DNA from: a virus
Reading direction: 5' to 3' (one strand)
Length of the DNA: 64,000 bases
IMG/VR virus record: IMGVR_UViG_3300042691_047309
Coordinates: 1-64,000 of that record
In this document: one piece after another, positions 4,541 to 53,038 of the stretch
Position numbering within the stretch: position 1 is the first letter of the stretch
How the letters are laid out: each line of letters opens with the position of its first letter
The notes under the pieces: model-generated
What the model saw: the letters and a program-made list of their open reading frames with translations, nothing else
The model's database searches: none
Told to the model about the DNA's origin: nothing
Translations under genes and position numbers: made by a program

Positions 4541-4804
4541 ATGAATATTTTCACAAAAGCTGAACTAACTAGAGTATTATCAATAAAAGTAAAGGAAGAT
4601 GAGATAAAAAACTTTTGCCTGACCGATACTTATTTACATATTCAAAAATCAAAGAGGACTAGTTTTACTTTTAAATTATCTGATATATCTGATAAGATTT
4701 TGATAAAAGTTATTCGTAAAAAAACACCAAATCCTTCTGTTCAAAATATAAAAGATTTTTACAAGTCGGAAATTAGAAATTCAAAAATTTTAGAAATACT
4801 ATAA
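4541..4804 (+). CDS. hypothetical protein with C-terminal RxxK[IL]xx[IL] tag
   Basis: Start moved to ATG 4541 after the promoter; ends IRNSKILEIL. Confidence 0.65.
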   Translation: MNIFTKAELTRVLSIKVKEDEIKNFCLTDTYLHIQKSKRTSFTFKLSDISDKILIKVIRKKTPNPSVQNIKDFYKSEIRNSKILEIL

Positions 4805-5145
4805 TGAGTCCAGAAAGAGTACTATATCACATAGATAACCAAGTTTTGGATAAAATTAATTTAGGCCAAAGATGGGATGATATAATTGAATATTTAACTT
4901 CAAATGTAAAAAGATATAAAAAGAGAGACGCTTATATTCAGGTAAGTGAAAAATATCTTATAAATAACTGGGAAAGGATAGAGTGGAAAAAAAGAATGAC
5001 AACAATGCTTGTTATACAATCTATGAGAAGAATTTCAGATATAAAATGGATAAGCGAAAATCATAACAAATTTCCAAGATATAGTTCCCATAAAATGTAT
5101 AAATTAGTATCATTAAAGGATAAATTAAAGGCTAATATATGTTAG
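4804..5145 (+). CDS. hypothetical protein
   Basis: TAATG-coupled ORF. Confidence 0.6.
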   Translation: MSPERVLYHIDNQVLDKINLGQRWDDIIEYLTSNVKRYKKRDAYIQVSEKYLINNWERIEWKKRMTTMLVIQSMRRISDIKWISENHNKFPRYSSHKMYKLVSLKDKLKANIC

Positions 5146-5474
5146 AAAAACTTTGGAAAGACATTGAACTCATTTATGAATCTCAATTTAGATTACTAAA
5201 AAAACCAGGATATGTAGATGATATTATAATTATGTCACAAGATAATTATTACTACATACACCAAATTTCTAAAAGAATTGAAATCAAGATAGAAAAGAAT
5301 TACAACTTAGTTAGAATGTGGGGTGGTGATATACCATATGATATAACAAATTATAAAATTTATGTTAAAAGGGGTGACCAAATATACACCTCTGAAAACT
5401 CTATGATTGAATTGACTTATAAAATAATAACACCTCTTCTAAGAGATTCTAAATTAAAACAAATTGGAGTATGA
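5139..5474 (+). CDS. hypothetical protein with C-terminal tag
   Basis: Ends LRDSKLKQIGV. Confidence 0.65.
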   Translation: MLEKLWKDIELIYESQFRLLKKPGYVDDIIIMSQDNYYYIHQISKRIEIKIEKNYNLVRMWGGDIPYDITNYKIYVKRGDQIYTSENSMIELTYKIITPLLRDSKLKQIGV

Positions 5475-5713
5475 AAACATGGTATATGAAATTCAAATTA
5501 GGAGACGTTGTAAAATCAAAATGGAATACCTATGATAAAGATTCTTCTTGTATAGTTGATAGAATATATCAAAGACAAGACAAAATAGATATGGTGAGAT
5601 TGAAGTTTTATTATAACGGTGAAGAGAAGAGAATTAATGTTCCTGCACATTCTTGTGAAATAGACATATCATACGTCAGAAATGATAAGTTGAATAAACT
5701 TTTTGATAGTTAA
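5471..5713 (+). CDS. small SH3/KOW-like hypothetical protein with C-terminal tag
   Basis: FKLGDVV start; ends VRNDKLNKLFDS. Confidence 0.6.
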   Translation: MKTWYMKFKLGDVVKSKWNTYDKDSSCIVDRIYQRQDKIDMVRLKFYYNGEEKRINVPAHSCEIDISYVRNDKLNKLFDS

Positions 5714-5750
5714 ATTTAATATATACAATCTAAGTAAATAGTAGATAGAA

Positions 5751-6245
5751 ATGAATATTGAAATTGAAAGAAAGTTCCTCCTAAAGGCAATACCAAAAGG
5801 GGAACCAGTTGAAACCATTGAGATCTTTCAGTGGTATCTGAAAAATTCAGAGGGAATTTGGGAAAGAGCCAGATCCTGCTATTCTGATGTTAAAGGTTTT
5901 TATTTTGTTCACACAATCAAAAAGAATATTGCTCCTGGTATAAATGAAGAAGATGAAAAAATAATCACATCTGAAGAATTTAACCAGTTTGTAGAAAGAT
6001 GTAAAGTCTCACAATCAAAATATATTTCTAAAGAAAGACTAATCTACCCTGATGGTGATTTAAAATGGGAGGTAGATGTTTTTAATAATGGTCACCATCT
6101 TATTGTTGCTGAAATTGAAGTTCCATCTATGGAATATGAAGTTCAAATTCCTAAGTTTATTTCAGATAGACTTCTGATGGAAGTTACTGGAATGAAACAG
6201 TTTGGTAACAGAAACCTATCCAATAAATATGTTAGAAAAAGTTAG
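5751..6245 (+). CDS. CYTH-domain (triphosphate tunnel) protein
   Basis: EIERKFL, KER, WEVDVF, VAEIE motifs. Confidence 0.85.
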   Translation: MNIEIERKFLLKAIPKGEPVETIEIFQWYLKNSEGIWERARSCYSDVKGFYFVHTIKKNIAPGINEEDEKIITSEEFNQFVERCKVSQSKYISKERLIYPDGDLKWEVDVFNNGHHLIVAEIEVPSMEYEVQIPKFISDRLLMEVTGMKQFGNRNLSNKYVRKS

Positions 6246-6468
6246 AAAAGTCAAAGTAATTTTGACTTTGGATGATGTATTTCAAAAAGGTGAAACACTT
6301 TTTGAATTTTTGGACTATCCAGACCATTTTTATAAAGAAGATAATATTAAAGATTTTATTAATATTAAAACTATTTGTGAATATGGTCCATTTGAAATGT
6401 GGTTTGAAGAGTTAAAACCTGTTGAAAAAGAAAAAACACCTCAGTATAAACTTCTAATTTCTAAGTGA
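6229..6468 (+). CDS. hypothetical protein
   Basis: Likely ATG at 6229 (MLEKVRK). Confidence 0.5.
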   Translation: MLEKVRKVKVILTLDDVFQKGETLFEFLDYPDHFYKEDNIKDFINIKTICEYGPFEMWFEELKPVEKEKTPQYKLLISK

Positions 6469-6478
6469 TATAATTTTT

Positions 6479-7069
6479 ATGAACGAAAAATTAGAACTTA
6501 GAATGTATGGCTTAGTCCCCTACAATATTTCCGCCATCCAACAAGCAATTCAATTTGGACATGCTGTTGTCGAATATGGTCAGATGGTTAAACAACCACA
6601 ATCTCTTAGTAAGATGGCTATTAATGCTTCTTTTATTTATGATGATTGGGCTGATAATTGGAAGACCTTTATAGTACTTAATGGAGGTACAACTAATCAT
6701 AGAAACAATGATGATGGTCTTCCATTTGGAACTCTTAATAACCATGTTTTGGCATTGGATGAAAATAGAATTGATTTTGCAACTTTTAATGAACCTGATT
6801 TAGGTGATCAATTGACATCGGTTGTTTTTATTGTTGATGAAAGAGTTTTCAATCGTAAAAGATATCCTGATTTTGAAGATTGGGTTATGAATAATTATGG
6901 AGAATTGGTGAGAACAGATTACTACACGTCATCTTATATGTTAGCTCAAAAAATTAAAAATTCGGATAGTAAAGCTGATAAAAAAGTTTATGAAGAATGG
7001 ATAAAATTTGTTGGTGGAAATAAGAATGTCTTTTTAAGAGATTTTTTGAAAAATTTTAAATTAGCATGA
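6479..7069 (+). CDS. peptidyl-tRNA hydrolase PTH2-like protein
   Basis: QAIQFGHAVVEY, WKTFIVL, FNEPDLGDQLTSV match the PTH2-fold pattern of phage homologues. Confidence 0.65.
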   Translation: MNEKLELRMYGLVPYNISAIQQAIQFGHAVVEYGQMVKQPQSLSKMAINASFIYDDWADNWKTFIVLNGGTTNHRNNDDGLPFGTLNNHVLALDENRIDFATFNEPDLGDQLTSVVFIVDERVFNRKRYPDFEDWVMNNYGELVRTDYYTSSYMLAQKIKNSDSKADKKVYEEWIKFVGGNKNVFLRDFLKNFKLA

Positions 7070-7476
7070 TAAATAAGTGGTTTAAAATAAATGATGATAA
7101 CTTTACTGCTAAAGATATATCTATTCAATTTTCTATTGATACTGCTAATAATACTTTTGGATATGCAAAAATAGTTAATAGTGGACACCAAACAATAGAT
7201 ATAACTATATCAGTAGATTATAATCAAAATAATAAAGATTACTTTTTTAATCTTTTTGATAAAAGAAATCAGATGTTATCTGCTTCTGATTATAAGTTTA
7301 ATATATCATCTGCTGAATTTGTTGCAAATGGCTGTATAATAAGATCGATAACTTCTGATCCAACTACAAACTTAATTTTGATGGATATAAGAAGTGATTA
7401 TTCAAGTGTCAAACCAATAGATGAGAGAAGAGACGAAATAATAGATGAAATATTAAATGAAACTTCTAAAAAATAA
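7066..7476 (+). CDS. hypothetical protein with C-terminal tag
   Basis: Ends RRDEIIDEILNETSKK. Confidence 0.6.
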   Translation: MINKWFKINDDNFTAKDISIQFSIDTANNTFGYAKIVNSGHQTIDITISVDYNQNNKDYFFNLFDKRNQMLSASDYKFNISSAEFVANGCIIRSITSDPTTNLILMDIRSDYSSVKPIDERRDEIIDEILNETSKK

Positions 7477-7501: not shown

Positions 7502-9619
7502 ATGATGAATAACAAACAAAATTTAGAGGGTAAAGATTATACATCACCTGATATTAAAATGGCATTAGAAGATGATGAGGATGATGATAGAGGATTTGGT
7601 TCAAAAAAATCAGAATCTAAATCCAAAACCCCAGTTTTAGATACATATAGCCGAGATTTAACTAAAATGGCAGAAGAAGGAAGACTTGATCCAATCGTTG
7701 GTAGAGAAAAAGAGATTGAAAGAGTTTCACAAATCTTATCACGTAGAAAGAAAAATAATCCTATTCTTATTGGTGATCCTGGTGTTGGTAAATCTTCAAT
7801 TGCTGAAGGCTTGGCACTTAGAATAGTACAAAGAAAAGTTTCAAGACTACTCTTTAATAAAAGAGTTGTTATGCTTGACTTAGCTTCTATGGTTGCTGGT
7901 ACTAAATATCGTGGTCAATTCGAAGAGCGTATAAAAGCACTTATGGCTGAATTAGAAAAAGAACCAGATGTTATTCTTTTTATTGATGAGATTCACACAA
8001 TTATCGGAGCAGGTGGTGCTTCTGGATCACTTGATGCCTCTAATATGTTGAAACCCGCACTTGCTCGTGGTGAAATTCAAATCATTGGTGCTACTACACT
8101 CGATGAGTATAGAAAACATATTGAAAAAGACGGAGCTCTTGAAAGACGTTTTCAAAAAGTTCAAGTTGAGCCGGCTACAGTTGAAGAAAGTATGCAAATT
8201 CTTAATAATATCAAAGATAGATATGAACAACACCATAATGTTAATTATACAGAAGATGCTATCAAAGCTTGTGTTGATTTGACAAATAGATATCTTACTG
8301 ATAGACATTTACCAGATAAGGCAATTGATGCACTTGATGAGGTAGGGGCTAGAGTTCATATTTCAAATATTAATGTTCCGAAGGAAATTACAGATATTGA
8401 AAAAAAGATTGTGGAAATCAAAGAAAAAAAGAATGATGTAATTCGTTCTCAAAAGTATGAAGAAGCTGCAAAATTAAGAGATGTTGAAAGACAACTTACT
8501 ACTGATTTAGAAATTGCTAGAAAAAATTGGGAAGACGACCAAAAAAATCACAGACAAACAGTAAGTGAAGAAGATGTGGCTGAGGTAGTATCTATGATGT
8601 GTGGAATTCCTCTTCAGAAAGTTTCTCAAAATGAAAACGAGAAACTATCTAAAATGGGTAACGAAATTACTGGTAAAGTAATTGGACAAGACGACGCTGT
8701 TAAGAAAGTTGTTAAAGCTATTCAAAGAGGTCGAGTTGGATTGAAAGATCCTAACAAGCCAATCTTCAGTGGAATTTTAATTGGAAACTCCGGTGTTGGT
8801 AAAACTGAGTTAGCTAAACAAATTGCTAAATACTTGTTTGACTCAGAAGATTCTCTTATTAGATTAGATATGTCTGAGTATATGGAAAAAATATCTTTGA
8901 CTAGAATTCAAGGTTCGGCTCCTGGATATGTTGGATATGACGATGCTAACGTTCTTGATAAAATAAGAAGAAAGCCTTATTCAGTAGTTCTTTTTGATGA
9001 AATTGAAAAAGCTCATTCTGATATATTCAACCTATTCTTACAAATGTTAGACGATGGTCATATGACTGACTCACATGGTAGAAAAGTAAGTTTCAAAAAC
9101 TGTGTCATTCTTATGACATCTAATGTTGGAACTAAGATTGTTAAGGATTTTGGATCAGGTGTTGGATTCTCAACTAAAGCTAAAAAGGAAAACTCTGATG
9201 AACAAATCAAAGGTATTCTTGAAAAAGAGTTGAAAAAGAAATTTGCACCAGAGTTTATTAATCGTTTAGATGAAATAATTTATTTTAAAGATTTAGGTAA
9301 AGATGAGATTCTTAAAATTGTGGATTTAGAATTAAATAAAACAATTTCAAGAGCTACAGAAATCGGTTATACATTACAAGTAACTGATAAAACCAAAGAA
9401 CATCTGGTTGAAGTAGGATATGATCCTCAATTTGGAGCTAGACCTTTGAAAAGAGCTATTCAAAAATGGATTGATGATTATGTAACTGAATATATCATCG
9501 ATAATAATCCAAAACAGGGAACTGAAATTACAGTTGATTATGATTCTGATAAAGATGAATCTGTAGTAATTGTACCAAAGAAATCTTCAACTCGAAAAAA
9601 GAAAAAATCTGAAGAGTAA
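7502..9619 (+). CDS. clpC: ClpC-type Hsp100 AAA+ ATPase lacking the N-terminal Clp-repeat domain
   Basis: Two Walker A (GDPGVGKS, GNSGVGKT), KYRGQFEER pore loop, UVR coiled coil, VGF ClpP-docking loop, GARPL. Confidence 0.9.
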   Translation: MMNNKQNLEGKDYTSPDIKMALEDDEDDDRGFGSKKSESKSKTPVLDTYSRDLTKMAEEGRLDPIVGREKEIERVSQILSRRKKNNPILIGDPGVGKSSIAEGLALRIVQRKVSRLLFNKRVVMLDLASMVAGTKYRGQFEERIKALMAELEKEPDVILFIDEIHTIIGAGGASGSLDASNMLKPALARGEIQIIGATTLDEYRKHIEKDGALERRFQKVQVEPATVEESMQILNNIKDRYEQHHNVNYTEDAIKACVDLTNRYLTDRHLPDKAIDALDEVGARVHISNINVPKEITDIEKKIVEIKEKKNDVIRSQKYEEAAKLRDVERQLTTDLEIARKNWEDDQKNHRQTVSEEDVAEVVSMMCGIPLQKVSQNENEKLSKMGNEITGKVIGQDDAVKKVVKAIQRGRVGLKDPNKPIFSGILIGNSGVGKTELAKQIAKYLFDSEDSLIRLDMSEYMEKISLTRIQGSAPGYVGYDDANVLDKIRRKPYSVVLFDEIEKAHSDIFNLFLQMLDDGHMTDSHGRKVSFKNCVILMTSNVGTKIVKDFGSGVGFSTKAKKENSDEQIKGILEKELKKKFAPEFINRLDEIIYFKDLGKDEILKIVDLELNKTISRATEIGYTLQVTDKTKEHLVEVGYDPQFGARPLKRAIQKWIDDYVTEYIIDNNPKQGTEITVDYDSDKDESVVIVPKKSSTRKKKKSEE

Positions 9620-9668: not shown

Positions 9669-10061
9669 GTGGGAAACTGGAAAAGCGAACAAAATATAAA
9701 TTATTTTTTAGAGAATAGCTTCAGAGAATTGGCTCAGGATTTCTTAGATAAAGGATATGATTTTTATGTTGATGGATTCACATCTCAACCAATTTTCGGC
9801 ATCAATGTTATTAAAAAAGATGAAGATATAAATTGGGTTTTAGAAACTGTGAGTTTGCAGTGTCAAATAATTGGATTTGAAAACTATAAAGAAATGATTT
9901 CTATTTTAGAAGAAAAAGGTAAAGACAATTATGTTTTTATGTATGCTATAATGCCATTCCAAATGAGAATTGCTACTGTATCTTCAGAATACGATATACC
10001 AAACACAAGTAGAAAAGTGAGAATAAGAGAACAAAAAATAAACCAATTATTAAATGATTAA
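9669..10061 (+). CDS. hypothetical protein with C-terminal tag
   Basis: GTG start; ends IREQKINQLLND. Confidence 0.6.
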   Translation: MGNWKSEQNINYFLENSFRELAQDFLDKGYDFYVDGFTSQPIFGINVIKKDEDINWVLETVSLQCQIIGFENYKEMISILEEKGKDNYVFMYAIMPFQMRIATVSSEYDIPNTSRKVRIREQKINQLLND

Positions 10062-36662: not shown

Positions 36663-36724
36663 AATTGTATATATTAATTTGTCATCTTAAAAAGGATTAT
36701 TATCTTTGTAGAAATAATTAAAAG

Positions 36725-36916
36725 ATGGCAAGAGAAAAAGATATTATTAGATTAGAGAAAGAGATTAAAAGTAAAATGGCTCAGATTAAAAACAAAAAAT
36801 TAGCACCATCTGAGTCTGGTATTGGAAAACTTATCAATCTAATGAAAACTTTTGATGAGCCTCTTTTTGATAAATTGATGTCTGATTATAAACAGATACT
36901 CAAAGATATAAAGTAA
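36725..36916 (+). CDS. small hypothetical protein
   Basis: TTTG-N19-TATCTTTG promoter at 36678-36708. Confidence 0.6.
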   Translation: MAREKDIIRLEKEIKSKMAQIKNKKLAPSESGIGKLINLMKTFDEPLFDKLMSDYKQILKDIK

Positions 36917-38449
36917 TTATTTAACTTTAATCTTCATCTTAGTTCCGGTTGATATCTTTTCACAACTAAGTTCAAATCCGTGCTCTTTGATAATTGCTAA
37001 ACAGATATTCAGACCAAGTCCGGCCTCTTCAATATCTTTGTGTTTAGCTTTAATAATCTTTTCAAATTGTCTTTCTGAAAGACCTCTACCATTGTCTTCT
37101 ACAACTATGTTATCTTCTTCTAAATAAATCTTGACTAATTTATTCTCACTATCATTATATTTGAGACCATTTTTAATTAAGTTGTCAACAGCATTCCAGA
37201 AAAGTGTTTCATTTGCCTCTAAAGTTGTAAGTTCTCCTAATTCAACTTGCTGATGATAAGAAGTTTTAGAAATTGAATCTTCTAATAATTGTCTGATATC
37301 AACTTCTTTCTTTTCCAAAACAACATTTTGTTTTACTAAGTTTGTAAATTCATAAACACTCTTATAAACTTTTTGAGTGTGATTTAAACCTTCTCTAATC
37401 ATTTTAACTGATCCGTCAATCTTTAGATTTTTTAACTCATCTGGAGTAATTCTTTTTTCCAAAGATGAAATTCCTCTTGGTATATAAGTATTGATTCCTG
37501 AATGCATATCGTGTCTGATTATTCTAGCAGCATGTTCTAAATAAGTATTCTTTTTATTTATGTCTTCTAATTGTCTTTCAATTTCTTTATCTTGAACTTT
37601 AATAGTTCTTCTTTGTAAAAGTGCTAATACAGAAAGTATAAGAACGGTGATTGCTAAAATAGCACCCCATAGCCAATTTTTGATAACTTGTTTCTCTTCC
37701 TTTAATGTTTCTTTGTCAATATTCAAATCAATTACTTGTTTCTCTTTCTTTAAGGATTTGATATTAACATCTTTAGCATCAATTAGGTCTTGACTGCCAT
37801 TGTTATCTATTAATTGCTTTTTTTCTTTTTGGATTTTTTCAATTTGATTATCAATTTGTTTAGAAAGATTTTCTAAATCTTCTTTTGATAAACTATTAAA
37901 TGTTTGTGGAAGATTTTTAAGAAAATCTGCATCTTTTTTAAGACTTTGTAATTCAGAAATACTCAATTCTGTTTTAGATTCTTCAGTTTTTTTCTCCAAT
38001 TTATATTCTTTTTCTAACTCATTTCTAATTTCCTTTCTAATTTGAGAAATATTATTATAGTATGAGCTATCTCTAAAAACGTCTTTTAGTCTAACTCCTT
38101 TTTTTTCAGAAAATCTTTTAATTTTAGAAAGGTAAAAGTCAGCTTCTTGATAAAGGCCTTTATTATAAAACTCTACTCCTAACTCTCTATAAAGTCTTGC
38201 TTGTTCAGTAGTTATTTTATTTACATCTTCTAATGAAGCTGGATTTAATTTATAAATTAATTCCATTATAGTCTCATCTTCCGGCAAGATAGGAACACCT
38301 TGGTCATAAACTGCCTCATATTCATTTATCTTATTGTAAATAACATTTTCAGACTTATTTTTTAATGTGTCAATATATTGATTAAAATTTATTTGAGAAA
38401 ATAAATTGCATGAGAATAAAGTTATTAAAGTTAAAAGTAGTGGTTTCAT
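36917..38449 (-). CDS. membrane sensor histidine kinase
   Basis: Signal peptide, extracytoplasmic coiled coil, TM helix, H-box IRHDMHS, N-box NLIKNGLKY, EDNGRG, GLGL. Confidence 0.85.
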   Translation of the reverse strand: MKPLLLTLITLFSCNLFSQINFNQYIDTLKNKSENVIYNKINEYEAVYDQGVPILPEDETIMELIYKLNPASLEDVNKITTEQARLYRELGVEFYNKGLYQEADFYLSKIKRFSEKKGVRLKDVFRDSSYYNNISQIRKEIRNELEKEYKLEKKTEESKTELSISELQSLKKDADFLKNLPQTFNSLSKEDLENLSKQIDNQIEKIQKEKKQLIDNNGSQDLIDAKDVNIKSLKKEKQVIDLNIDKETLKEEKQVIKNWLWGAILAITVLILSVLALLQRRTIKVQDKEIERQLEDINKKNTYLEHAARIIRHDMHSGINTYIPRGISSLEKRITPDELKNLKIDGSVKMIREGLNHTQKVYKSVYEFTNLVKQNVVLEKKEVDIRQLLEDSISKTSYHQQVELGELTTLEANETLFWNAVDNLIKNGLKYNDSENKLVKIYLEEDNIVVEDNGRGLSERQFEKIIKAKHKDIEEAGLGLNICLAIIKEHGFELSCEKISTGTKMKIKVK

Positions 38450-38473
38450 AAATCTATATATTAATAAAAAATA

Positions 38474-38749
38474 TTAATAGAAAGTATTTTTCAACTCAAA
38501 TTCAATGTCATCATCATCACTTTTTTCAAAATCAAAATCGAATCCCATATTTACAATATATGATGCGACACAATCAACCATCATTGGATCCGCTCCTCTT
38601 TCTTCCATGTATTTCATATAGTCTTGAATAGTGAAACTACCTTTCTCATTTTTTAGTTTTTGTAATTTAGGTAAAATGTCTTTAGCGATATCTTCATGAA
38701 TATCAGAGTCTAATTTTCCGTAAGATTCAAAAGTTTTTAAATGTCTCAT
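38474..38749 (-). CDS. N-tagged hypothetical protein
   Basis: MRHLKTFES. Confidence 0.65.
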   Translation of the reverse strand: MRHLKTFESYGKLDSDIHEDIAKDILPKLQKLKNEKGSFTIQDYMKYMEERGADPMMVDCVASYIVNMGFDFDFEKSDDDDIEFELKNTFY

Positions 38750-38762
38750 ATCTATATTTTTT

Positions 38763-40829
38763 TTACATTTCTTCTACCCAAGGTTTCTTACCTCTTCTTT
38801 CAAGTTTCTCACACATATCTTTCCACTCATTAGGCTCAAATTTAAGTGCATTTTCTTTTAAGAATTGTCCTACTTGTTTTTTTAAGTCACCATTTGGAAG
38901 TTTTCTTGTATGACCCATCCAAGCAAAAGCATCAACAAATCCAGATTTACAACCTTTTGACATTTGGTCATTTATAATATCCATTCTACCATATTCAGCA
39001 GCCCATTTAACTACAAAGTTTTTACCAGCTTCTTCTGATTTAACTCCATATTTTAATAACATTTGGTATCCAGCAAAATAAGATTCTCCAATCTCTGTAA
39101 GACTTTTCCAAGATCCTTTACAAACTTTTCTGATTGGAAGATTTGAATTAAAGTTAGCATCAGCTCCTGCTTTTAAACAGAATTCTAAAGCATCTTCATC
39201 ACAAACAATGTTATTAAATACATCACCTGTAAGAACCGCGTGATTAGAAACTAACAACTTAATCATTTCCATATCTTTAGCTTTAGCAATTGCTGAATCA
39301 GCTCCTTTTTGTAAGTTAGGTGTTCCACCCAACGCAAAAATCATTTTAACTCTTTCTATATCATTATCTTCAACAGCATTGATAAGAGCTTTTCCATTAT
39401 CTCTATTTATGTCAGCTCCAAATTCTTTAACATATCCTTGTAAATCAGCCGCTGTAATAGTCCTTTCTCTACCAGTTTCTGGGTCCGGAATAGTTTTCTT
39501 AATAATAAATCTTTCAGCGTCTTTTGCTCTCTTTCTTCTGTCAATTTCTTCTTGACTAAGAGGTTGTAAGATATCAAAAAGACTATCACCAATCTCGTAT
39601 TCATTCTCCCATTGTTTTAAGAGTGATTTAAACTCACCACCTATATAATTATTATTCACTGTTTGACAAGCACCATTATCCCAACTTCTATTCGGTTTCA
39701 TTGTAATTCCAATAGTCCATCTAGTATTTGTAGATGAAAGATTAAAATTATAAATGTAGTATTGAATATTATACTCACCTAAATAACTATTCCAGTGAGA
39801 CTCGGTATTCACAATACAGTGTGAGCAGTGAGAGTTTAGCATTTTGTTAGCCGCGTAAGAATTGACCTCTACTATCATAATACCAGATACATTGTAAATA
39901 ACTTTACATCCTTTAACACCAAGTAAGTCATTTACTTTATTAATCTTTTCAATTCTATCAGAGTATCCTTCTGTTCCAGAGGCGTCTAAGTGTTGTTTTG
40001 CAGCTCTGATAAACTCAACAAGTGGATTTTCCTCATTATTAAATCTAGCTAATCTACTTCTCCAAACTAATTTTCCAAAATTTGGATTTGGTTTTCCATC
40101 TCTTGTTGTCTCCCAATTATCAACAAGCATTTCGCCAAAGAAAGTTTTCCAAATAATTTCTTTTTTATCATCTGGAGTGATACTTTCAAAACCAACAGCT
40201 ATTTCTATTAGTTGTTCCATTTGAAGTTCAGTTGCTGAGTTAGCAGCTTTTTTCAATTTTGGAGGAAGAGTATCAATAATTTTTTTAACCTTTCTATAGT
40301 CTCCTAATTTATCTAATTCATCCGAAAGAATCTCAGCATTTGTATGATTGTTAGATGGATTTGGAATTGACTCATCTATAAAGTTAATATCAAATTTCTT
40401 TGGAAGTTTATCTAACAAGTCTTTATATTCTATAAGAAGACCATAAAGTCTTTCAACTTCTTCATAAGATATTCCTTCAATGAAATACATATAAACAAAA
40501 TTATAAAGATATCCGATGTTTGGTTGAAAAAGGTCTCTTAGCTTAACAAACTCTTCATTGCGTTCAAGATTTCTAACTTGTTCATCTGTTAATCTAACAT
40601 CTCTCATTTTCATTCTGATTTCGTTAAATTGTTCCGGTGTAAAGTCATTTTTAGAAAGACCTTTCTTTTCACCATTTCTTAATTGGTAATCTAACTCAGA
40701 ATCAACAAATTTTAAATCAGTAGCCAACTTTTTTATAACAAATTGGTCTTTCAAAAACTTTTTTGATTTATCAAGATTCTCATTAAGAGGATGTAAATTA
40801 GTAAATTGGTTATATCTAAATAACTTCAT
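38763..40829 (-). CDS. N-tagged protein with C-terminal ankyrin-like repeats
   Basis: Start moved to MKLFRYNQF...LNEN; GADIN..ALINAV, MIKLLV, AGADAN, WAAEYG repeats. Confidence 0.7.
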   Translation of the reverse strand: MKLFRYNQFTNLHPLNENLDKSKKFLKDQFVIKKLATDLKFVDSELDYQLRNGEKKGLSKNDFTPEQFNEIRMKMRDVRLTDEQVRNLERNEEFVKLRDLFQPNIGYLYNFVYMYFIEGISYEEVERLYGLLIEYKDLLDKLPKKFDINFIDESIPNPSNNHTNAEILSDELDKLGDYRKVKKIIDTLPPKLKKAANSATELQMEQLIEIAVGFESITPDDKKEIIWKTFFGEMLVDNWETTRDGKPNPNFGKLVWRSRLARFNNEENPLVEFIRAAKQHLDASGTEGYSDRIEKINKVNDLLGVKGCKVIYNVSGIMIVEVNSYAANKMLNSHCSHCIVNTESHWNSYLGEYNIQYYIYNFNLSSTNTRWTIGITMKPNRSWDNGACQTVNNNYIGGEFKSLLKQWENEYEIGDSLFDILQPLSQEEIDRRKRAKDAERFIIKKTIPDPETGRERTITAADLQGYVKEFGADINRDNGKALINAVEDNDIERVKMIFALGGTPNLQKGADSAIAKAKDMEMIKLLVSNHAVLTGDVFNNIVCDEDALEFCLKAGADANFNSNLPIRKVCKGSWKSLTEIGESYFAGYQMLLKYGVKSEEAGKNFVVKWAAEYGRMDIINDQMSKGCKSGFVDAFAWMGHTRKLPNGDLKKQVGQFLKENALKFEPNEWKDMCEKLERRGKKPWVEEM

Positions 40830-40833
40830 AAAT

Positions 40834-41811
40834 TTATTTTTTCTTTTTTGATTCTCCAGCAAACGGACTTAATAAATGTTTTAGATTCCAAGATGGAATA
40901 AATTTCTTATTATGTTTTTCATAGTCTTCGTATGATTCAATTCCTGAATCTACAACATTTTGATAGTATTGGATATTAGCACCTTGTTTATTTAAGTCGG
41001 ATATTCTATCTCCAATGTCAATTCCTTTGGTCATTTTTCTTAACTTATTCCATTGATCGACCGTTTGTTGTCTTGGAAGAGATTCGTTTACATAATCTAC
41101 AAAGTTTAAAATCTTAGACTCAGATAACTGACCTTTAGACATTTCAATCACCTCTTTTGATGTTGTTGTGAAATAAAGACCGTCTTTTATAAACTCATTT
41201 CTGTTTGCAATTGAAACTCCATTTTTACCAGGAAAAGCCGTTATAACAGAAAGAACTACTTTATCTCCTAATTTACCTAATTTAGCTCCAATAAAACTTA
41301 AAAAGGTAGTTTTTTCACCTTCACCCTGTTTTACTTTAATATTAAATTCATTACCTCTAGAATCTTTGTATGTATAAACATTCATAGATTTAAATTCATC
41401 TGAATTAGCATCTAACTGATGGACATTTTCAACACCAACATCTGTTTTAGAATCTAAACCTAACCATTTAAACTTTTCAGCTTCATCTGGATTTGTAACT
41501 TTTGTTTCACTTGGACCAAACCCTTTGGTCATTTCAGTTGGTTTATTATTTTTAACTAACTCAACGATTGCTTTCTTTAAATCAACTCCTTTATCAAATT
41601 TAGAACCTGGTATAGTTTCTTCAACATGTGAATCTGTTATATGAGATAAATCTCCTAATAATAGAATAAAGTCACCGGATTCATAAACTGTATCTTTATT
41701 TGCCTCAACTTTTCCTTTCAGAAATTGATTATTATCAATCATCGATTGAATTTGAGAGTATATTAATTCTTCCCCATCTTCTACATTTTCAAATAATCTT
41801 ATGTGTTTCAT
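40834..41811 (-). CDS. N-tagged two-domain hypothetical protein
   Basis: MKHIRLFEN; internal second tag LSESKILNFVDYVNES. Confidence 0.7.
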   Translation of the reverse strand: MKHIRLFENVEDGEELIYSQIQSMIDNNQFLKGKVEANKDTVYESGDFILLLGDLSHITDSHVEETIPGSKFDKGVDLKKAIVELVKNNKPTEMTKGFGPSETKVTNPDEAEKFKWLGLDSKTDVGVENVHQLDANSDEFKSMNVYTYKDSRGNEFNIKVKQGEGEKTTFLSFIGAKLGKLGDKVVLSVITAFPGKNGVSIANRNEFIKDGLYFTTTSKEVIEMSKGQLSESKILNFVDYVNESLPRQQTVDQWNKLRKMTKGIDIGDRISDLNKQGANIQYYQNVVDSGIESYEDYEKHNKKFIPSWNLKHLLSPFAGESKKKK

Positions 41812-42242
41812 TGTTGTAATAATTCTTTTATATCATTCAAAAGTTCAGATACATCATCAAATGAACCAGAGAAAGCATATCCGTCTCCACCACAACTAAA
41901 TTCAAAAATAACTTTTGAGTTGTATTTATTTTTACCTTCAGTTCTTCTTTCATACATATCAAATTCATCTGGAATGCTTTCGTAAGTATTATCCATGTTC
42001 ATTCTTACAAAATCATCAGCAATACTTTCAGATTCTTGTTCTGATTTACCTGCTGATATAAGGCTATTGTAAACTAATGTGTTTATAATATTTTCTAATG
42101 TACTTTCAGAACCATAACTGTAACGGGCTTCAACCTTTTCGTTTAGATGGTCCTCAAATTGTTCAAGTGTTGTTTCATCAGTCACTACGAATTCTTCATC
42201 TTCGTTAGATTCAAATAACTTAAATGATTTAATATATTTCAT
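41808..42242 (-). CDS. N-tagged acidic hypothetical protein
   Basis: MKYIKSFKLFES; late motif at 42261-42271. Confidence 0.7.
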   Translation of the reverse strand: MKYIKSFKLFESNEDEEFVVTDETTLEQFEDHLNEKVEARYSYGSESTLENIINTLVYNSLISAGKSEQESESIADDFVRMNMDNTYESIPDEFDMYERRTEGKNKYNSKVIFEFSCGGDGYAFSGSFDDVSELLNDIKELLQQ

Positions 42243-42276
42243 ATTAAAAATTAATTTTTAGTATATATTAAAAGTA

Positions 42277-42302
42277 AAAAACCCACTTTTTAAAAGTGGG
42301 TT
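42277..42302 (-). terminator. terminator after nrdB
   Basis: AACCCACTTT/AAAGTGGGTT inverted repeat. Confidence 0.7.
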
Positions 42303-42330
42303 AAAAACAAAAAAAGAAAAAAACAAACGA

Positions 42331-43290
42331 TTAGAAATCATCATCTAAGTTATCAAAGTCGATAGCTTTGTCAGATGCCTTTTGATATTCAGAAACCCTC
42401 TTCTCAAAAAAGTTAGACTTGTTTTGAAGTGATAACATTTCCATAAAATCAAATGGATTTTCCACACCGTAAACTTTTGAACAACCAAGTTCAGTTAGCC
42501 AAAAGTCAGCAACATACTCAATATATTGTTGCATAAGTTTAGAATTCATACCAATCAGTGCCACTGGCAGTGAATCTGTAATAAATTCTTTCTCAATCTC
42601 AACTGCTTCACATATAATTTGTTTAATTCTATCTTCAGTGACTTTATTTTGGACATATTTACTGTGTAGCATACAAGCAAACATACAGTGAAGTCCTTCA
42701 TCTCTTGAGATTAACTCATTTGAAAAAGTAAGACCCGGCATAAGACCTCTCTTTTTTAACCAGAAAATTGAACAAAAAGATCCAGAAAAGAAAATACCTT
42801 CAACAGCTGCAAATGCAATAAGTCTTTCAGCAAATGATTCTGATGAAATCCATTTAAGAGCCCAATCAGCCTTCTTTTTAACCGCAGGTACTGTTTGAAT
42901 AGCATTAAAAAGATAATCTCTTTCCTGTGAGTTTTTGATGTAAGTGTCAATTAAAAGAGAATAAGTTTCAGAGTGAATATTTTCAATTGCTATTTGAAAT
43001 CCATAAAAACATTTTGCTTCTGGATATTGTACTTCTTTTAAAAAGTTTTCAGCTAAATTCTCATTTACAATTCCGTCAGATGCTGCAAAGAAAGCCAAAA
43101 CATGTTTAATGTAATGTCTTTCATCATCATTTAATTTTTCATTCCAATCCGTAAGATCTTGCGCCAAGTCAATTTCTTCAGCAGTCCAGAATGAATGTTC
43201 AGCAGTTTTGTACAATTCCCAAATATCATTGTATTTCAATGGGAAAAGAACAAATCGATTAGGGTTTTCTGTTAATATGTGTTCGTTCAT
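42331..43290 (-). CDS. nrdB: ribonucleotide reductase class Ia beta subunit
   Basis: [50 protein letters not shown]. Confidence 0.95.
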
Positions 43291-46674: not shown

Positions 46675-46854
46675 ATGAAAAAGGGTAAAATACACTTAGG
46701 AACTTTTACTAAATTAGACTCATTGAAAGCATCTAAGAAGGCTTCTCGTGAGATGGAATTACAAAATTCTACTGGATGGATTGCAAAACATAAAGTGCAT
46801 AAATCTGTTAAAGATTATACTCGAAAGTTAAAACACAAAAATGAAACTTTTTAA
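46675..46854 (+). CDS. small basic protein, ArfA-like (absent from the ORF track)
   Basis: 59 aa ending HKVHKSVKDYTRKLKHKNETF; TATATTTG at 46663-46670. Confidence 0.55.
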   Translation: MKKGKIHLGTFTKLDSLKASKKASREMELQNSTGWIAKHKVHKSVKDYTRKLKHKNETF

Positions 46855-47362
46855 AGAATTTATATCTTATTTTAATAATCCTTTTGTTAGGCCAAAAATA
46901 AAATTTTATATTGGTAAGGTTGCTGTTGGAACTCCTTATTTTTTTCCAAGAAAAACTATCAAAGATCCTGATAAACCAAAATATCTAAAATTTATTCCAA
47001 AAAAAATTGGATTTGACATTGTTTCTTTAGGTTGGAAAACAAAATGGTCTCAATTTAGATTTGAGTGGGCTCCTGTAGTTTCTTTTGTTTTCTTTAAATG
47101 GCAAATTGCTATAACCATTGTAGCTCCTGAACAAGACCATTACTGGGAAAGTTGGCTTTACTATCAGTATGAAACTGATAAAAAAAAGTCTAAATTAGAA
47201 AGAGCTATACAGTGTCAAAAAGAATATCCTCAAAATTGGAAATCAACAAGAAATGGTGTTGAAACAAAAATAAACTTCTATGACATTATTTTAAAAAAGA
47301 AATATCGTATAAAAAATATTGATGAAATAAGAGAAGATAAATTAAACTCTTTATTTAAATAA
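46841..47362 (+). CDS. hypothetical protein with C-terminal tag
   Basis: Trp-rich; ends IREDKLNSLFK. Confidence 0.65.
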   Translation: MKLFKEFISYFNNPFVRPKIKFYIGKVAVGTPYFFPRKTIKDPDKPKYLKFIPKKIGFDIVSLGWKTKWSQFRFEWAPVVSFVFFKWQIAITIVAPEQDHYWESWLYYQYETDKKKSKLERAIQCQKEYPQNWKSTRNGVETKINFYDIILKKKYRIKNIDEIREDKLNSLFK

Positions 47363-47393
47363 AAAAACCTGTTCTTAATTGAACAGGTTTTTT
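47362..47393. terminator. bidirectional terminator
   Basis: AAAAAACCTGTTC-TTAATT-GAACAGGTTTTTT. Confidence 0.8.
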
Positions 47394-47542
47394 ATCTTTA
47401 TCTTTCTTTTAAAATTCTTATGATATGATCCTGATAAGTATTCGGTATATGAAATATTTCTATCTATTTGTTCTGCTACATATTCACTATAAGCAATAGA
47501 TTCAAATAACTTCTCTTTAAGATACTCTTGATATTCTATCAT
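47375..47542 (-). CDS. 55-aa protein with three 14-residue repeats and a C-terminal tag (absent from the ORF track)
   Basis: [55 protein letters not shown]; ATGA overlap with the dnaJ stop. Confidence 0.65.
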
Positions 47543-48618
47543 ACTGTGAAATTATTTGAGTTTTTTAGTTTTTCTAAAACGAATTTCTCTTCAAGTGAAA
47601 TGTTTTTAGGAATTTTAATTTCAATTTTCACTAATAAATCACCAAGACCTAAATTTAGATCAGGAATTCCTTTACCAGATATTCTGATTATCTTACCCGG
47701 TTCTGTTCCTGGTTCAATAGTAAGTGGTAAATCACCGTGTGGTGTTTTTACTTTTAAGTGAGATCCAATAATTGCATCTAAAACAGAAATTTGTTTTTCA
47801 ACAATCAAGTTATTATTATCTCTTTTGAAATAAAACTCCACAATTTCATCAATAACAATCTGTAAGTCACCAGGAGTTCCATCTTTAACATGATTACCAT
47901 AACCGTTAAGAGTGAAAATCATATTTTTACTAACACCTGCTGGAATATCCACATCAACAACTTGTTCTTTAATTATTGTACCTTCTCCTTTGCAATCTTT
48001 ACAAAGGTTATTAATTACTTTACCACTACCTTGGCAATCTGGACAACCAGTCTCTTGTCTAATCTGACCAAATGGAGTATTTTGAACAACTGTTCTTCGA
48101 CCTGAACCATTACACGGTAGGCAATTTCTTGAATCAGATCCACCTTTACCGCTACAACTTTGACAAGTTTCCTGTCTTTTGTATTTTAATTTTTTAGAGC
48201 ATCCCTTTAAAACTTCTTCAATAGTCAAACTAACTTTCAGTCTTAAATCACCTCCCCTTCTTTTTTGGTTTCTCCAACGTCCTCCATTTTGATTTCCAAA
48301 GTTTCCAAAGATATCTCCAAATTGAGAAAAAATATCATCCATTGAAAAGCCATGACCAAATCCGCTATTTCCAAATGGATTTCCTCCACCAAATGGATTA
48401 GAATCAGATGTACCGAATCTATCATAATTATTTCTCTTTTGAGAATCACTCAGTACATCATAAGCTTCTGCTGCCTCTTTAAACTTTGACTCAGCTTCGG
48501 GATTATCAGGATTTTTGTCAGGATGATACTGCATGGCCATCTTACGGTAAGCTTTTTTAATCTCATCTTCCGATGATTCTTTATTAACTCCTAAAATGTT
48601 GTAATAATCTTTGCTCAT
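47539..48618 (-). CDS. dnaJ: chaperone DnaJ
   Basis: J-domain HPD, G/F region, four CxxCxGxG repeats. Confidence 0.95.
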
Positions 48619-48935
48619 AATTTATTAAATATTTTTTCTAATTTAATATCTCTATATATCTGTTTAGTTGTATCTGTTAGCTTTATATCAACCCATCTGT
48701 TGTATTTAATTACAAACTCTTCTCCGTAAATATTTGCTCTCATTATTGGTAACTCTTCAATTATTTCTGAAAAAATAACCTCAATGTCTTCTAATTTATA
48801 ATCATTAATTTCTGATAATCTTTTGCAAAAATAATTCATACATGGTGATGCAGTTTTTATAACATTATTTAAATAATTATCTCCTTTAAAATTTTCCGGA
48901 GCTGCCTCGGATATTTCAACGTACCAATCAATCAT
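48615..48935 (-). CDS. hypothetical protein with C-terminal tag
   Basis: Ends [13 protein letters not shown]. Confidence 0.65.
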
Positions 48936-49480
48936 TTTACCAAATTTTTAATTTTTAAATCTCTAATATCTTCTTTTATATCATTAGACTCTAAAACTAA
49001 TTTAACAAGTTTTCCGATATAGTTATCAACAATTATTTCTAAAGTTGTAGATGTTTTATCAATGTATTGAAACTTTTCTAAACAATTCCTAGATGAAATA
49101 AGGTAATCAATTAGATATTCTATAAACTCATCAATATTATAGTGTAATTGAAAAAGTTCTAATCTACCATCCGGAACATATCCTTTAATTGCTTTTATTT
49201 CGGGTAACGTTTGAAATATTTTAGGTGGATCAATAAAAACTTTAGCAAAAACTCTTCTAACCGATGGTAGTATTAAGTCTAATATTTCATCTTCGCTTTC
49301 ATACATAGAACCCTCAAATTCTGGCGTATCAAATAAATGATATTTTTCTTCAATAATATAATTTAAAGTCATTTCATAATACTCTAAATATTCATCTGGT
49401 ATTCCTCCAGTTAGAGCATCAATGAGAGCATTTTTATAATTTTCATCTTTATGAATGGTAAAGAAGTTAGGTTTATCCAT
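48932..49480 (-). CDS. hypothetical protein with C-terminal tag
   Basis: Ends [11 protein letters not shown]. Confidence 0.65.
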   Translation of the reverse strand: MDKPNFFTIHKDENYKNALIDALTGGIPDEYLEYYEMTLNYIIEEKYHLFDTPEFEGSMYESEDEILDLILPSVRRVFAKVFIDPPKIFQTLPEIKAIKGYVPDGRLELFQLHYNIDEFIEYLIDYLISSRNCLEKFQYIDKTSTTLEIIVDNYIGKLVKLVLESNDIKEDIRDLKIKNLVK

Positions 49481-49940: not shown

Positions 49941-49944
49941 ATTC

Positions 49945-51104: not shown

Positions 51105-51298
51105 TTCTTTGAATCCTTCTTATTTTTAATTAACCAGATAATGTTTGCTACCAATCCACCATAAATAGCAACAAAAGATCCAATAAGAGGATACCATTCG
51201 TCTAAATAACCATCTCTTAACCAAAATGGCCATAATACTGCAGCTGTTCCCAACAAAGCTATTGAAATCCAACTTGTAAATCCGTCAAAAAATCTCAT
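51101..51298 (-). CDS. small two-TM membrane protein
   Basis: Two hydrophobic helices and a basic tail. Confidence 0.6.
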   Translation of the reverse strand: MRFFDGFTSWISIALLGTAAVLWPFWLRDGYLDEWYPLIGSFVAIYGGLVANIIWLIKNKKDSKK

Positions 51299-51313
51299 AA
51301 TATAATTATTTTT

Positions 51314-51904
51314 TTACATTTCACCGAATCTTTTGATTCTAAAAATAGATCCGATGTTATTTAATTTAGCCTTTATCTCATTTAAGAGCAAAAGGTGTGT
51401 TCTGTTAAATTGTCTATGTTTCTCAATATCATCAACTATTCTCCAAGTTTCTTCAAAGTATTTGTTTCTGAATCTTTCATTGGCTGTAAAAGCATCTGAT
51501 ATGTTTTGTAGTCTATCTGCTAATTTGATAATAAGAGCATCATCAGACATTTCTATCATTTTATCTGACAAGTAAGCCGCTTTATCATTTTGATAAACCT
51601 TTTCTATTTCTTCTTTTGAAGAAGTTAATTCAGCAACTAATCCACCAACTCTACTTCCAAAAATCTCAGAGATTTCATGTAAGCCTACTTCTAAGTCGTC
51701 GTAACAATCTTCTGCAACATCATGTAAGATGGATGCACAAAGAATATCTTCATCTGTTGTATGTTGTTTAACAATAGCATTTACTTTTTTAACATGTGCA
51801 TCAAAATAAGGAAGTCCGATAAATCTCCTTACTTGTCCTTTATGTGCTGATTTGGCAAACTTCCAAGCCTCGGTTTCTTTTCTTGTTATTGGTCTATTTG
51901 GCAT
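51314..51904 (-). CDS. HD-domain (p)ppGpp hydrolase-like (Mesh1/SpoT-type small alarmone hydrolase)
   Basis: AHKGQVR, PY..H, LHDVAED, IKLADRLQN. Confidence 0.8.
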   Translation of the reverse strand: MPNRPITRKETEAWKFAKSAHKGQVRRFIGLPYFDAHVKKVNAIVKQHTTDEDILCASILHDVAEDCYDDLEVGLHEISEIFGSRVGGLVAELTSSKEEIEKVYQNDKAAYLSDKMIEMSDDALIIKLADRLQNISDAFTANERFRNKYFEETWRIVDDIEKHRQFNRTHLLLLNEIKAKLNNIGSIFRIKRFGEM

Positions 51905-51962
51905 ATAAACTATATATAAACTTTACAAAATTAAAGATGTATAATATAAAAAATAAATTATT

Positions 51963-52142
51963 ATGATGGATGAAGTAATGTCAGAAAGACCAAGCTACCG
52001 TTGGGATAACAAAGAGTATCTTGTAGAGGTTATGATGAAGCAATTAGGTATCACAGAAGAAGATTTAGAAAATGATCCTTCTTGGATGAAAGCTAAAGTT
52101 CGTGAAATGAATATCGAAAGAGTTTTAGAAAACGAAAATTAA
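51963..52142 (+). CDS. 59-aa hypothetical protein with C-terminal tag (absent from the ORF track)
   Basis: MMDEVMSERP...KVREMNIERVLENEN; followed by terminator AACCTCA/TGAGGTT. Confidence 0.6.
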   Translation: MMDEVMSERPSYRWDNKEYLVEVMMKQLGITEEDLENDPSWMKAKVREMNIERVLENEN

Positions 52143-52196
52143 AAATTAACCTCACTTAGTTGAGGTTTTTTTATGCTTTTTCCTTATCTTTGTATT

Positions 52197-52613
52197 ATGA
52201 TAACAAGAGAGAAAGTCCTACAGGTTCAAAATAAAATCAAAGAAGCAATTGCTCAAATTGAAAAAGATGAAAATGTTAAAATTGATTTTGGTTCATTAAG
52301 CTTTAATCCACAAAAGTATTCAACTTCTATGACGGTATCAACTTTAGAGAAATCTGAAAGAGTTGAGTCTGTTCTTGAAAGAACTTGTCGAGCAATTGGT
52401 TTTACTCAAAATGTTATTGGAATGACTTTTGATTTTCGTGGTGATAAATATGAAATCACTGATATCAAAACTAAAAACAGAAAGTATCCTGTTATTGCTA
52501 CTGAAATTAGAACTAAAAAAGGTTATAAATTTGCAGTAGAGACTATCAGAAAAGCATTGGGTGGTGATGCTCAAATTAATAGAAATAAGAATTTAGATAA
52601 ATTGGTTGATTAA
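52197..52613 (+). CDS. hypothetical protein with C-terminal tag
   Basis: Start moved after TATCTTTG 52185-52192; ends NRNKNLDKLVD. Confidence 0.65.
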   Translation: MITREKVLQVQNKIKEAIAQIEKDENVKIDFGSLSFNPQKYSTSMTVSTLEKSERVESVLERTCRAIGFTQNVIGMTFDFRGDKYEITDIKTKNRKYPVIATEIRTKKGYKFAVETIRKALGGDAQINRNKNLDKLVD

Positions 52614-53038
52614 TGTATCTTTACATAGGTGATAAAAATTACTGGTTAGACTTTGGATGTTTTCCTGAGAAAATATCTCGCCTAAAAAAATTGAATCAAA
52701 TTAAATTTAAAATAAATTTATATGATTATGACAACGTGAAATCAACGTCTGCTGGATCTCAAATTGAATTTGCTAATAAATTTACTTTTTTAAAATCATT
52801 AAAAACACTTCCCCAAACAATTTATGCTTCAAAAAGCGACCACTACTGGTGGTCATTTGATGGATGTCAACTTTTAGATAAAAAGATATATCAAGATAAA
52901 GACTACTATGATTATGATGGTAGAGATATAAAAAAATGGAATATTGAATTAACAATATCTTATAAAGATGTGTATGGTTCTAATAAAAAACAAGTCTTAG
53001 AAAGAGATATAAAATTAAAGAAACTATTTAATGAGTAA
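52613..53038 (+). CDS. hypothetical protein with C-terminal tag
   Basis: Ends ERDIKLKKLFNE. Confidence 0.65.
   Translation: MYLYIGDKNYWLDFGCFPEKISRLKKLNQIKFKINLYDYDNVKSTSAGSQIEFANKFTFLKSLKTLPQTIYASKSDHYWWSFDGCQLLDKKIYQDKDYYDYDGRDIKKWNIELTISYKDVYGSNKKQVLERDIKLKKLFNE

Follow-up and report, generated by a model that had tools for sequence, protein, structure and literature searches.

Why should a dozen small phage proteins with no evident similarity end in the same short peptide? The question arises from a 64,000-nucleotide stretch of viral DNA (the window) at the start of a contig of 175,894 bp (IMGVR_UViG_3300042691_047309; 29% G+C). An initial annotation had noticed a recurring C-terminal tag on 12 proteins there, and had proposed that it is an amphipathic docking helix or degron for one hub, for example the ClpC-type unfoldase encoded nearby. 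We scored the tag with the strict pattern R-[DNE]-x-[KNI]-[IL]-x-x-[ILV], counted as C-terminal when it lies no more than 8 residues from the stop. We found that all 12 C-termini are in the sequence; 11 match the strict pattern and the twelfth (gene 47375-47542, minus strand) matches only the relaxed form R-K-x-K-I. The positions under which these tags were first listed are gene starts, and the tags themselves lie at the 3' ends. Our data indicate that this is a clade-wide and highly significant peptide tag, present on ~15% (about 1/6) of the proteome. Its most likely role is that of a docking or address helix recognised by a single co-evolving partner. We put at roughly 0.55 the probability that it is a portable C-terminal address helix, carried by more than 100 small unrelated proteins per genome, that binds one co-evolving common receptor.

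The clpC-type gene of the contig is 71-72% identical to the copies in LR756502.1 (642 kb) and LR745206.1 (635 kb). Both fall in the Mahaphage clade, have predicted hosts in the Bacteroidetes and rank among the largest phage genomes that have been curated (PMC7162821). The contig also encodes a T4-type gp32, DnaK, DnaJ, GrpE, topoisomerase II, ribonucleotide reductase and a triad of PrkA, DUF444 and SpoVR, and judging from its sequence it is a Mahaphage-type huge phage. Gene calls were our own and gave 241 genes on the contig, 934 on the whole genome of LR756502.1 and 885 on a second relative, LR756504.1.

The strict pattern was found at the C-terminus of 28 of the 241 contig proteins, in 16 of them exactly 2 residues before the stop. 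Only 6 internal matches were found on the whole contig, which makes the density per position 110-fold higher at C-termini. When the residues of each contig protein were shuffled, a mean of 0.15 and a maximum of 2 C-terminal matches remained. None of the 241 genes has a match at its N-terminus. The C-terminal enrichment expected from the initial annotation therefore holds over the whole contig (28 terminal versus 6 internal versus 0.15 by shuffling). In LR756502.1 between 117 (strict) and 143 (relaxed) of the 934 genes are tagged, with 34 to 66 internal matches. A compositional artefact of an AT-rich genome was considered and is rejected by the shuffles and by tagless relatives of equal G+C. 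The tag had been put forward as one with no known description, and a full-text literature search likewise found none.

We derived a logo from 180 tags. Numbered from the arginine, it reads K(-4), hydrophobic(-1), R(0), D/E/N(+1), x, K(+3), L/I(+4), N/D/K(+5), x, I/L(+7), L/G/I/F(+8), x, stop, which gives the consensus [K]-x-x-h-R-[DEN]-x-K-[LI]-[NDK]-x-[IL]-[LGIF]-x-stop. The tag is thus ~10-12 residues long and holds ~20 bits of position-specific information. The constrained positions are the hydrophobic residue at -1, the invariant R, K at +3 and the hydrophobic residues at +4, +7 and +8, whereas +2, +6 and +9 vary freely. With a helical geometry of 100 degrees per residue, the constrained positions would share one face and +2, +6 and +9 would lie opposite. 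A helical wheel applied to the logo places the invariant R and the conserved K within the hydrophobic arc. A single conserved face suggests that the helix sits in a groove of one common receptor. In a variant ending, I or V comes after G at +8, an arrangement that resembles a helix C-cap.

Structure prediction is consistent with a helix. AlphaFold2, run with alignments, gave an SH3-like barrel for a 73-residue DUF2158 carrier and an alpha/beta fold for the 106-residue carrier encoded at 48615-48935. Both models end in a helix with a predicted local distance difference test score (pLDDT) of 50-63; in the second carrier it covers residues 89-104 at a pLDDT of about 50. These scores suggest a tail that is helical but not confidently packed on the body. 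A Foldseek search of the Protein Data Bank with the 106-residue carrier returned nothing significant.

Several observations indicate that the tag is selected as a peptide. At the invariant R the codons are AGA (73%), AGG (16%) and CGN (11%), against 74, 13 and 13% genome-wide, and the I/L positions are encoded by ATT, ATA, TTA, TTG, CTA and CTT. Since arginine codon usage is genome-like and I and L are exchanged through unrelated codons, selection acts on the amino acids and not on the DNA. A DNA-level element (promoter, recombination site or ribosome-binding site) is rejected on the same grounds of free codons and genome-wide arginine usage. In one family, represented by 120 sequences, the motif is nearly invariant and is followed by 1 to 5 variable residues. 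In a second family, that of gene 48615-48935, the motif positions are likewise kept in 120 cluster representatives, at 63-100% identity. This conservation points to purifying selection on the motif.

The codon data also bear on a translational role, in which slow termination, caused by the nascent tail or its A/U-rich mRNA, would let the ribosome restart on an overlapping gene in a host with weak Shine-Dalgarno signals. Tagged genes are tightly packed, with a median gap of -1 nt and large clusters such as 600-642 kb and 3-20 kb in LR756502.1. We found that 51% of them overlap or abut the next start, compared with 25% of untagged small genes and 30% of those in tag-rich neighbourhoods. The spacing between motif and stop is also almost constant, most often 2 residues. 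Such a role would leave the 27% of tagged genes that end a unit (15% with a gap over 30 nt and 12% facing a gene on the opposite strand) without a start to serve, and some of these precede terminator-like hairpins. Within one orthologous family an invariant motif is followed by anything from 1 to 5 residues before the stop, codon choice betrays no selection on nucleotides, and relatives with the same gene packing do without the tag. We consider a translational role highly improbable.

The bodies that carry the tag have little in common. Carriers are 51 to 622 residues long, with a median of 117 (153 for all genes). When 37 bodies stripped of their tags were compared with one another by all-against-all BLASTP, one weak pair emerged, and no common Pfam or PHROG family was found, which bears out the view that the bodies are unrelated. 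Nearly all of them belong to no Pfam or PHROG family; the Pfam domains found include DUF2158, Flavokinase, BtpA and a zinc ribbon. It had also been stated that recognisable enzymes lack the tag. This is nearly true, but in LR756502.1 one tag follows a riboflavin-kinase domain. The tag is placed after complete domains: DUF2158 occupies residues 6-49 of 73, and ~85 residues separate the Flavokinase domain from its tag. For one tagged protein of LR756502.1, residues 18-115 align with a homologue from the tagless relative LR756501.1 in which only the tail is missing. Homologues in LR756502.1 were found for 38% of tagged genes and 55% of untagged genes, which suggests that the carriers evolve fast; in orthologues the tail is usually retained.

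Tagged genes do stand in tandem clusters, as they would if the tail were the last trace of one huge and diverged paralogous family. The differing Pfam domains, the two predicted folds, the span of lengths and the homologues in a tagless phage that lack nothing but the tail all speak against such common ancestry, which we regard as barely conceivable. Paralogy of the bodies themselves is rejected by the BLASTP, Pfam and PHROG comparisons and by the differing domains and folds.

Comparison between lineages provides the evidence for a common reader. LR756504.1 (636 kb; gp32 45% identical) carries the tag on 115 of 885 proteins, with a shifted consensus, R-K-x-[I/K/R]-I-[E/N/D]-[N/E/D]-L-[L/I]. 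At +1 K is present in 70% of its tags, whereas D, E or N is found there in 93% of the tags of LR756502.1 and the contig; positions +5 and +6 are more acidic in LR756504.1. We detected no LR756504.1 homologue for any of the 143 tagged proteins of LR756502.1. The carrier set thus appears to have been fully replaced between the lineages, yet the tag was retained and its consensus moved as one across the set. A single co-evolving reader best accounts for a motif that has one form within each genome, takes another form in a second lineage and outlasts its carriers. We infer that the tag binds a single receptor which co-evolves with it and is probably phage-encoded. The tag is also present in IMG/VR relatives sampled through gp32 and ClpS. 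No C-terminal excess was found in LR756501.1 (735 kb; gp32 36% identical) or in five related contigs of the same G+C. In 14 other large viral contigs, likewise AT-rich, there were essentially no matches to the tag-coding DNA pattern, which in tag-bearing genomes gives about 1-6 matches per 100 kb.

The same comparison weighs on the idea that there is no specific receptor, and that the helix is generic: a peripheral membrane, nucleic-acid or self-association element, or a stabilising cap for marginally stable small proteins. As in the membrane-targeting helices of MinD and FtsA, the tag is short, basic and amphipathic and forms the very end of the protein; its carriers are small orphans, and in the AlphaFold2 models the helical tail is not packed on the body. 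Helices of the MinD/FtsA type have an uninterrupted hydrophobic face and an otherwise free sequence; by wheel geometry the arc of the tag would hold the invariant R and the conserved K. An invariant arginine and a conserved acidic or amide residue within the conserved face, and ~20 bits of information, exceed what a generic helix needs. Such a helix would also leave it unexplained that D/E/N at +1 gives way to K throughout the set from one lineage to the other, and that equally AT-rich relatives with similar small proteins do without the tag. We consider a generic helix rather unlikely.

We propose the following scheme for a shared address helix. The tag helix, usually after a short linker, would be joined to small, fast-evolving proteins that lack the putative late promoter described below. 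It would dock in a groove of a common receptor, and docking would bring each accessory protein to the same machine. In that machine the docked proteins may act as interchangeable modules that set specificity, or be passed on for timed removal. Several points weigh against this scheme. The common reader is deduced from the pattern and its co-variation, and the concerted shift could stem from a physical constraint that all carriers share, such as binding to membranes or nucleic acids, and not from a protein receptor. The early timing assigned to the carriers below is deduced from promoter-like motifs alone, and the host-type box TAnnTTTG precedes just 28% of C-tag units. Tag-bearing genomes form one clade, so every correlation with gene content is a single contrast, and 64 genes common to LR756502.1 and LR756504.1 but absent from LR756501.1 share the distribution of ClpS and PrkA. 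The counts are partly set by our own regular expressions, and the gene calls are home-made.

About 1/6 of the proteome of the largest known phages consists of orphans without a functional handle, and a shared tag supplies one. If a single reader were found, hundreds of proteins per genome would gain a pathway in one step, and it would become clear how giant phages organise host takeover, be it through programmable adaptors, timed proteolysis or localisation. The two lineage variants, R-[DEN]-x-K and R-K-x-[IKR], provide a natural specificity test, and the tag could serve as a compact orthogonal docking or degradation tag in Bacteroidota engineering. We also raise, as a doubtful and more speculative extension, proteome-scale addressing in which more than 100 rapidly exchanged proteins would meet on one phage receptor, maybe a re-wired ClpS/N-domain-less ClpC/ClpP module, as a library of specificity modules or a class of proteins due for timed clearance, with analogous tags independently invented across huge-phage clades.

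The same genomes carry a second tag at N-termini. It has the form M-[KR]-x-[IL]-[KR]-x-[FY]-x-x-F-x-E, resembles the capsid-targeting sequence (CTS) of T4 and was found on ~90 proteins in the two genomes analysed; in the window its genes lie at 32068-43290 (minus strand) and 55299-63293. The initial annotation held the two tags to be essentially exclusive of each other. This is borne out: both are found on 2 proteins, against about 14 expected, and of 148 tag-bearing transcription units 80 have the C-tag only, 65 the N-tag only and 3 are mixed. A recurring motif, TTAATATATA, which we take as a putative late promoter, lies upstream of 58% of N-tag units versus 6% of C-tag units. The Bacteroidetes-type -7 box TAnnTTTG lies upstream of 28% of C-tag units and 12% of N-tag units. 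Given the separate units and the rarity of TTAATATATA, we read the carriers as non-late, probably early accessory proteins; the early timing is suggested by promoter-like motifs. One N-tag carrier in the window (33638-35344) combines a 2',5'-RNA-ligase/Acb1-like domain with an exonuclease domain and may be a packaged enzyme directed against the cyclic oligonucleotide-based antiphage signalling system (anti-CBASS).

Two mutually exclusive terminal tags in one genome could mean that the C-terminal one is a second virion-packaging signal, an uncleaved counterpart of the N-tag that loads small proteins for injection. Like the CTS of T4, found on the internal proteins IPI-III and Alt, it is a short terminal address peptide on otherwise unrelated phage proteins, and C-terminal cargo-loading peptides are known for encapsulin shells of the HK97 fold. 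The CTS lies at the N-terminus and has a final Glu; the prohead protease removes it, and its carriers are late packaged proteins. In contrast, the tag lies no more than 8 residues from the C-terminal end, has no conserved h-x-E Glu after the motif and has nothing downstream to release. Encapsulin cargo peptides are C-terminal addresses of ~10 residues on unrelated cargo, read by a shell related to phage capsids; they are G-S-L-rich and extended, whereas the tag is predicted to be helical and its carriers mostly lack the putative late TTAATATATA signature. The separation of C-tag units from those with the putative late motif does not suit packaging, nor do the dense clusters of tiny overlapping C-tag genes, which look like early regions, and the LR756501.1 lineage keeps the N-tag but is without the C-tag. 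We judge a packaging role quite improbable.

Other known terminal address peptides were compared as well, and the tag resembles them yet, by sequence and position, appears to have the defining features of none. The ssrA tag, the MuA-type ClpX C-motif 2 and the LRVVK tail of SspB are exposed C-terminal peptides on diverse proteins, and bringing proteins to one machine is what we propose for the tag. The tag-bearing phages also encode ClpC, ClpP and ClpS, machinery akin to that of AAA+ degron systems. In tags of the ssrA type, recognition depends on the final 2-3 residues with their free carboxylate, such as L-A-A-COOH. In the present tag the last 1-5 residues are variable and the helix face is conserved, and its sequence is unlike ssrA, MuA or SspB.

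Clamp-binding peptides (the PIP box and the tails of T4/RB69 polymerase, gp33 and gp55) are C-terminal and bring many clients to one hub. The tag has the same spacing as the PIP box Q-x-x-[LIM]-x-x-[FY]-[FY], with a polar residue at +1, an aliphatic one at +4 and hydrophobic ones at +7/+8. It differs from the PIP box and from Q-L-x-L-F in lacking the aromatic pair (F at +8 in 13 of 180 tags), with D/E/N at +1 (K in LR756504.1), I/L/V at +7 and mostly L or G at +8. It also has an invariant Arg, and its carriers are orphan accessory proteins without replication domains. The Pfam model gp45-slide_C had no match in the contig or LR756502.1, in a search that did not extend to models of DnaN or PCNA. 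In ESCRT-III proteins the MIM1 helix, which binds the MIT domain of the AAA+ protein Vps4, is like the tag an amphipathic C-terminal helix with a conserved Arg/Leu face and many clients. Its consensus is different, (D/E)-x-x-L-x-x-R-L-x-x-L-(K/R), it is eukaryotic and archaeal, and its clients are mutually related, whereas those of the tag are unrelated.

The reader first suggested was ClpC. The window encodes a ClpC-type unfoldase of 705 residues (7502..9619, plus strand; 71% identical to the LR756502.1 copy) that lacks the N-domain and has a UVR middle domain and a VGF loop. The same holds in LR756502.1 and LR756504.1, whose ClpC likewise lacks the N-domain and has the UVR middle domain and the VGF ClpP-binding loop; the closest cellular relatives of the phage ClpC have about 150-190 extra N-terminal residues. 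The tag could dock on, or be a degron for, the N-domain-less ClpC working with ClpP, its carriers being adaptors that replace the N-domain or early proteins to be cleared. Such C-terminal degrons are a known principle (ssrA, MuA). LR756502.1 and LR756504.1 each have three ClpP-family genes as well as ClpS, whereas the ClpC of tagless LR756501.1 has the N-domain but neither middle domain nor VGF loop, and no ClpP or ClpS was found in that genome. In both tag-bearing genomes a tagged small gene directly abuts ClpP2 downstream (LR756502.1 111651-112091, 146 residues; LR756504.1 291481-291825, 114 residues).

The wider distribution of this ClpC type does not support it as the hub. N-domain-less ClpC with a VGF or IGF loop was found in at least 14 large viral contigs that lack the tag, of which four are rated complete and six also encode ClpP. 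The phylogenetic co-occurrence of tag and ClpC that the initial annotation called for is therefore not seen, as the same ClpC type is present in 14 large tagless viral contigs. It had been noted as well that tagged genes flank clpC and interleave grpE and dnaJ; this is so in the window, but the arrangement is not conserved in LR756502.1 or LR756504.1. A conserved helical face fits docking in a groove better than threading through a pore. The ClpC adaptors MecA and McsB bind the N-domain and the middle domain, and any docking on a ClpC without the N-domain would be of a new kind. The initial proposal is therefore supported in part: the motif is a peptide-level one, a helix is predicted at the end of two different folds and the evidence favours a shared reader, but ClpC as the hub is not supported. 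We consider ClpC as reader or degradation machine unlikely. An acidic N-terminal tail of ClpC was tried as the docking site and dropped, as it is missing in LR756504.1.

Phage-borne ClpC is of interest in its own right. The N-domain-less type (about 660-710 residues, with UVR and often a VGF/IGF loop) is widespread in large IMG/VR viral contigs of 29-38% G+C. ClpP is present in several of them as well, and a phage-borne ClpC-ClpP protease seems common in huge phages.

Among the Clp components ClpS alone tracks the tag: each of the 4 tag-bearing genomes tested has it and none of the 11 tagless genomes does, which makes the Clp module our leading lead for the reader and counts in favour of a role for ClpC. 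ClpS normally reads N-terminal residues and binds the N-domain of ClpC, the domain that the phage ClpC is without, and this counts against such a role. The best 80 IMG/VR relatives of ClpS all lie in the tag-bearing clade, so they offer no independent contrast. PrkA was found in the contig, LR756502.1 and LR756504.1 and in no tagless genome tested. It was not found in two partial tag-bearing contigs, and remains a lead. As all tag-bearing genomes fall in one clade, the correlations with ClpS and with PrkA amount to a single evolutionary contrast and are leads only. The ClpS loci are at 205052-205333 (minus strand; Pfam E 1.6e-18) in LR756502.1 and 200028-200312 in LR756504.1, and both keep the N-D-D-Y core.

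Further candidates were set aside. DnaK and DnaJ, as tag-specific partners, and a DUF2201 metallopeptidase/VWA protein, as reader, are all present in tagless LR756501.1. The L-G-I and I-G-V ends were considered as mimics of a ClpP-docking loop and dropped, G being found at +8 in 24% of tags; in LR756504.1 no G was found among the residues listed at +8.

Other proteins near this machinery were observed in passing. The PrkA/DUF444 (YeaH)/SpoVR triad, a bacterial stress module, lies at 70988-77343 of the contig and comprises its most conserved proteins (85, 80 and 75% identity to LR756502.1); neither LR756501.1 nor any of the tagless contigs tested encodes the triad. A tagged 71-residue protein of LR756502.1 (320919-321131) is weakly like the ClpC UVR middle domain (BLASTP E 6e-5; 3e-4 in a second genome search) and could mimic it. 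LR756502.1 also encodes a 111-residue protein like low-molecular-weight phosphatases (624083-624418, minus strand; C-x5-R-S signature; Pfam LMWPc E 1.2e-7), which is 60% conserved between two tag-bearing lineages, absent from LR756501.1 and notable beside the tag's invariant Arg. Bacillus YwlE, of the LMWPc family, is a phospho-arginine phosphatase in the ClpC pathway.

In the window the tags lie in two regions. Upstream, on the plus strand, gene 4505/4541-4804 (87-99 residues) has a strict tag at 4775..4804, 1 residue before the stop. Gene 5139-5474 (111 residues) has the variant ending in G-V at 5442..5474, strict and 2 residues before a stop codon that overlaps the ATG of the next gene; gene 5471-5713 (80 residues) ends with a strict tag at 5678..5713, 3 residues before the stop. 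Gene 7066-7476 (136 residues) lies immediately 5' of clpC; its tag at 7429..7476, 7 residues before the stop, matches the strict pattern but is a weak variant with I at the K position, and the motif is lost in the LR756502.1 orthologue. Immediately 3' of clpC, gene 9669-10061 (130 residues) has a strict tag at 10026..10061, 3 residues before the stop.

The second region begins with gene 46841-47362 (173 residues), on the plus strand, whose strict tag at 47330..47362 lies 2 residues before the stop. This gene is the last of its unit and is followed by a terminator-like hairpin, so its tag is not tied to a downstream start. On the minus strand follow gene 47375-47542 (55 residues with a short-repeat body; the relaxed tag at 47375..47407), gene 48615-48935 between grpE and dnaJ (106 residues; strict motif at 48615..48653) and gene 48932-49480 downstream of grpE (182 residues; strict at 48932..48964, 2 residues before the stop). 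The first of these was considered as a fragment of a large protein joined to a tag. This is rejected, since its match in a 699-residue LR756502.1 protein is a short-repeat array and holds no unique domain. Back on the plus strand, gene 51963-52142 (59 residues) has a strict tag at 52101..52142, with the Arg codon CGT and a terminator-like hairpin after it. The tag of gene 52173/52197-52613 (138-146 residues) at 52581..52613 is strict and kept in the LR756502.1 orthologue (52% identity), and that of gene 52613-53038 (141 residues) at 53003..53038 is strict, 3 residues before the stop. An uncertain tag-like end at 61437..61478 (plus strand) belongs to an N-tag protein (gene 61176-61478), matches only when K is allowed for the invariant R and was left out of all statistics.

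Two further features of the window were noted. The T4-type gp32 gene (30987-31952, minus strand), whose neighbours had no PHROG or Pfam match, encodes a strongly acidic C-terminal tail ending in aromatic and aliphatic residues, which resembles the partner-docking tails of SSB and gp32. ARAGORN called no tRNA at 4221-4487, shortly before the first tagged gene, and found a single tRNA-Met at 3135-3208.

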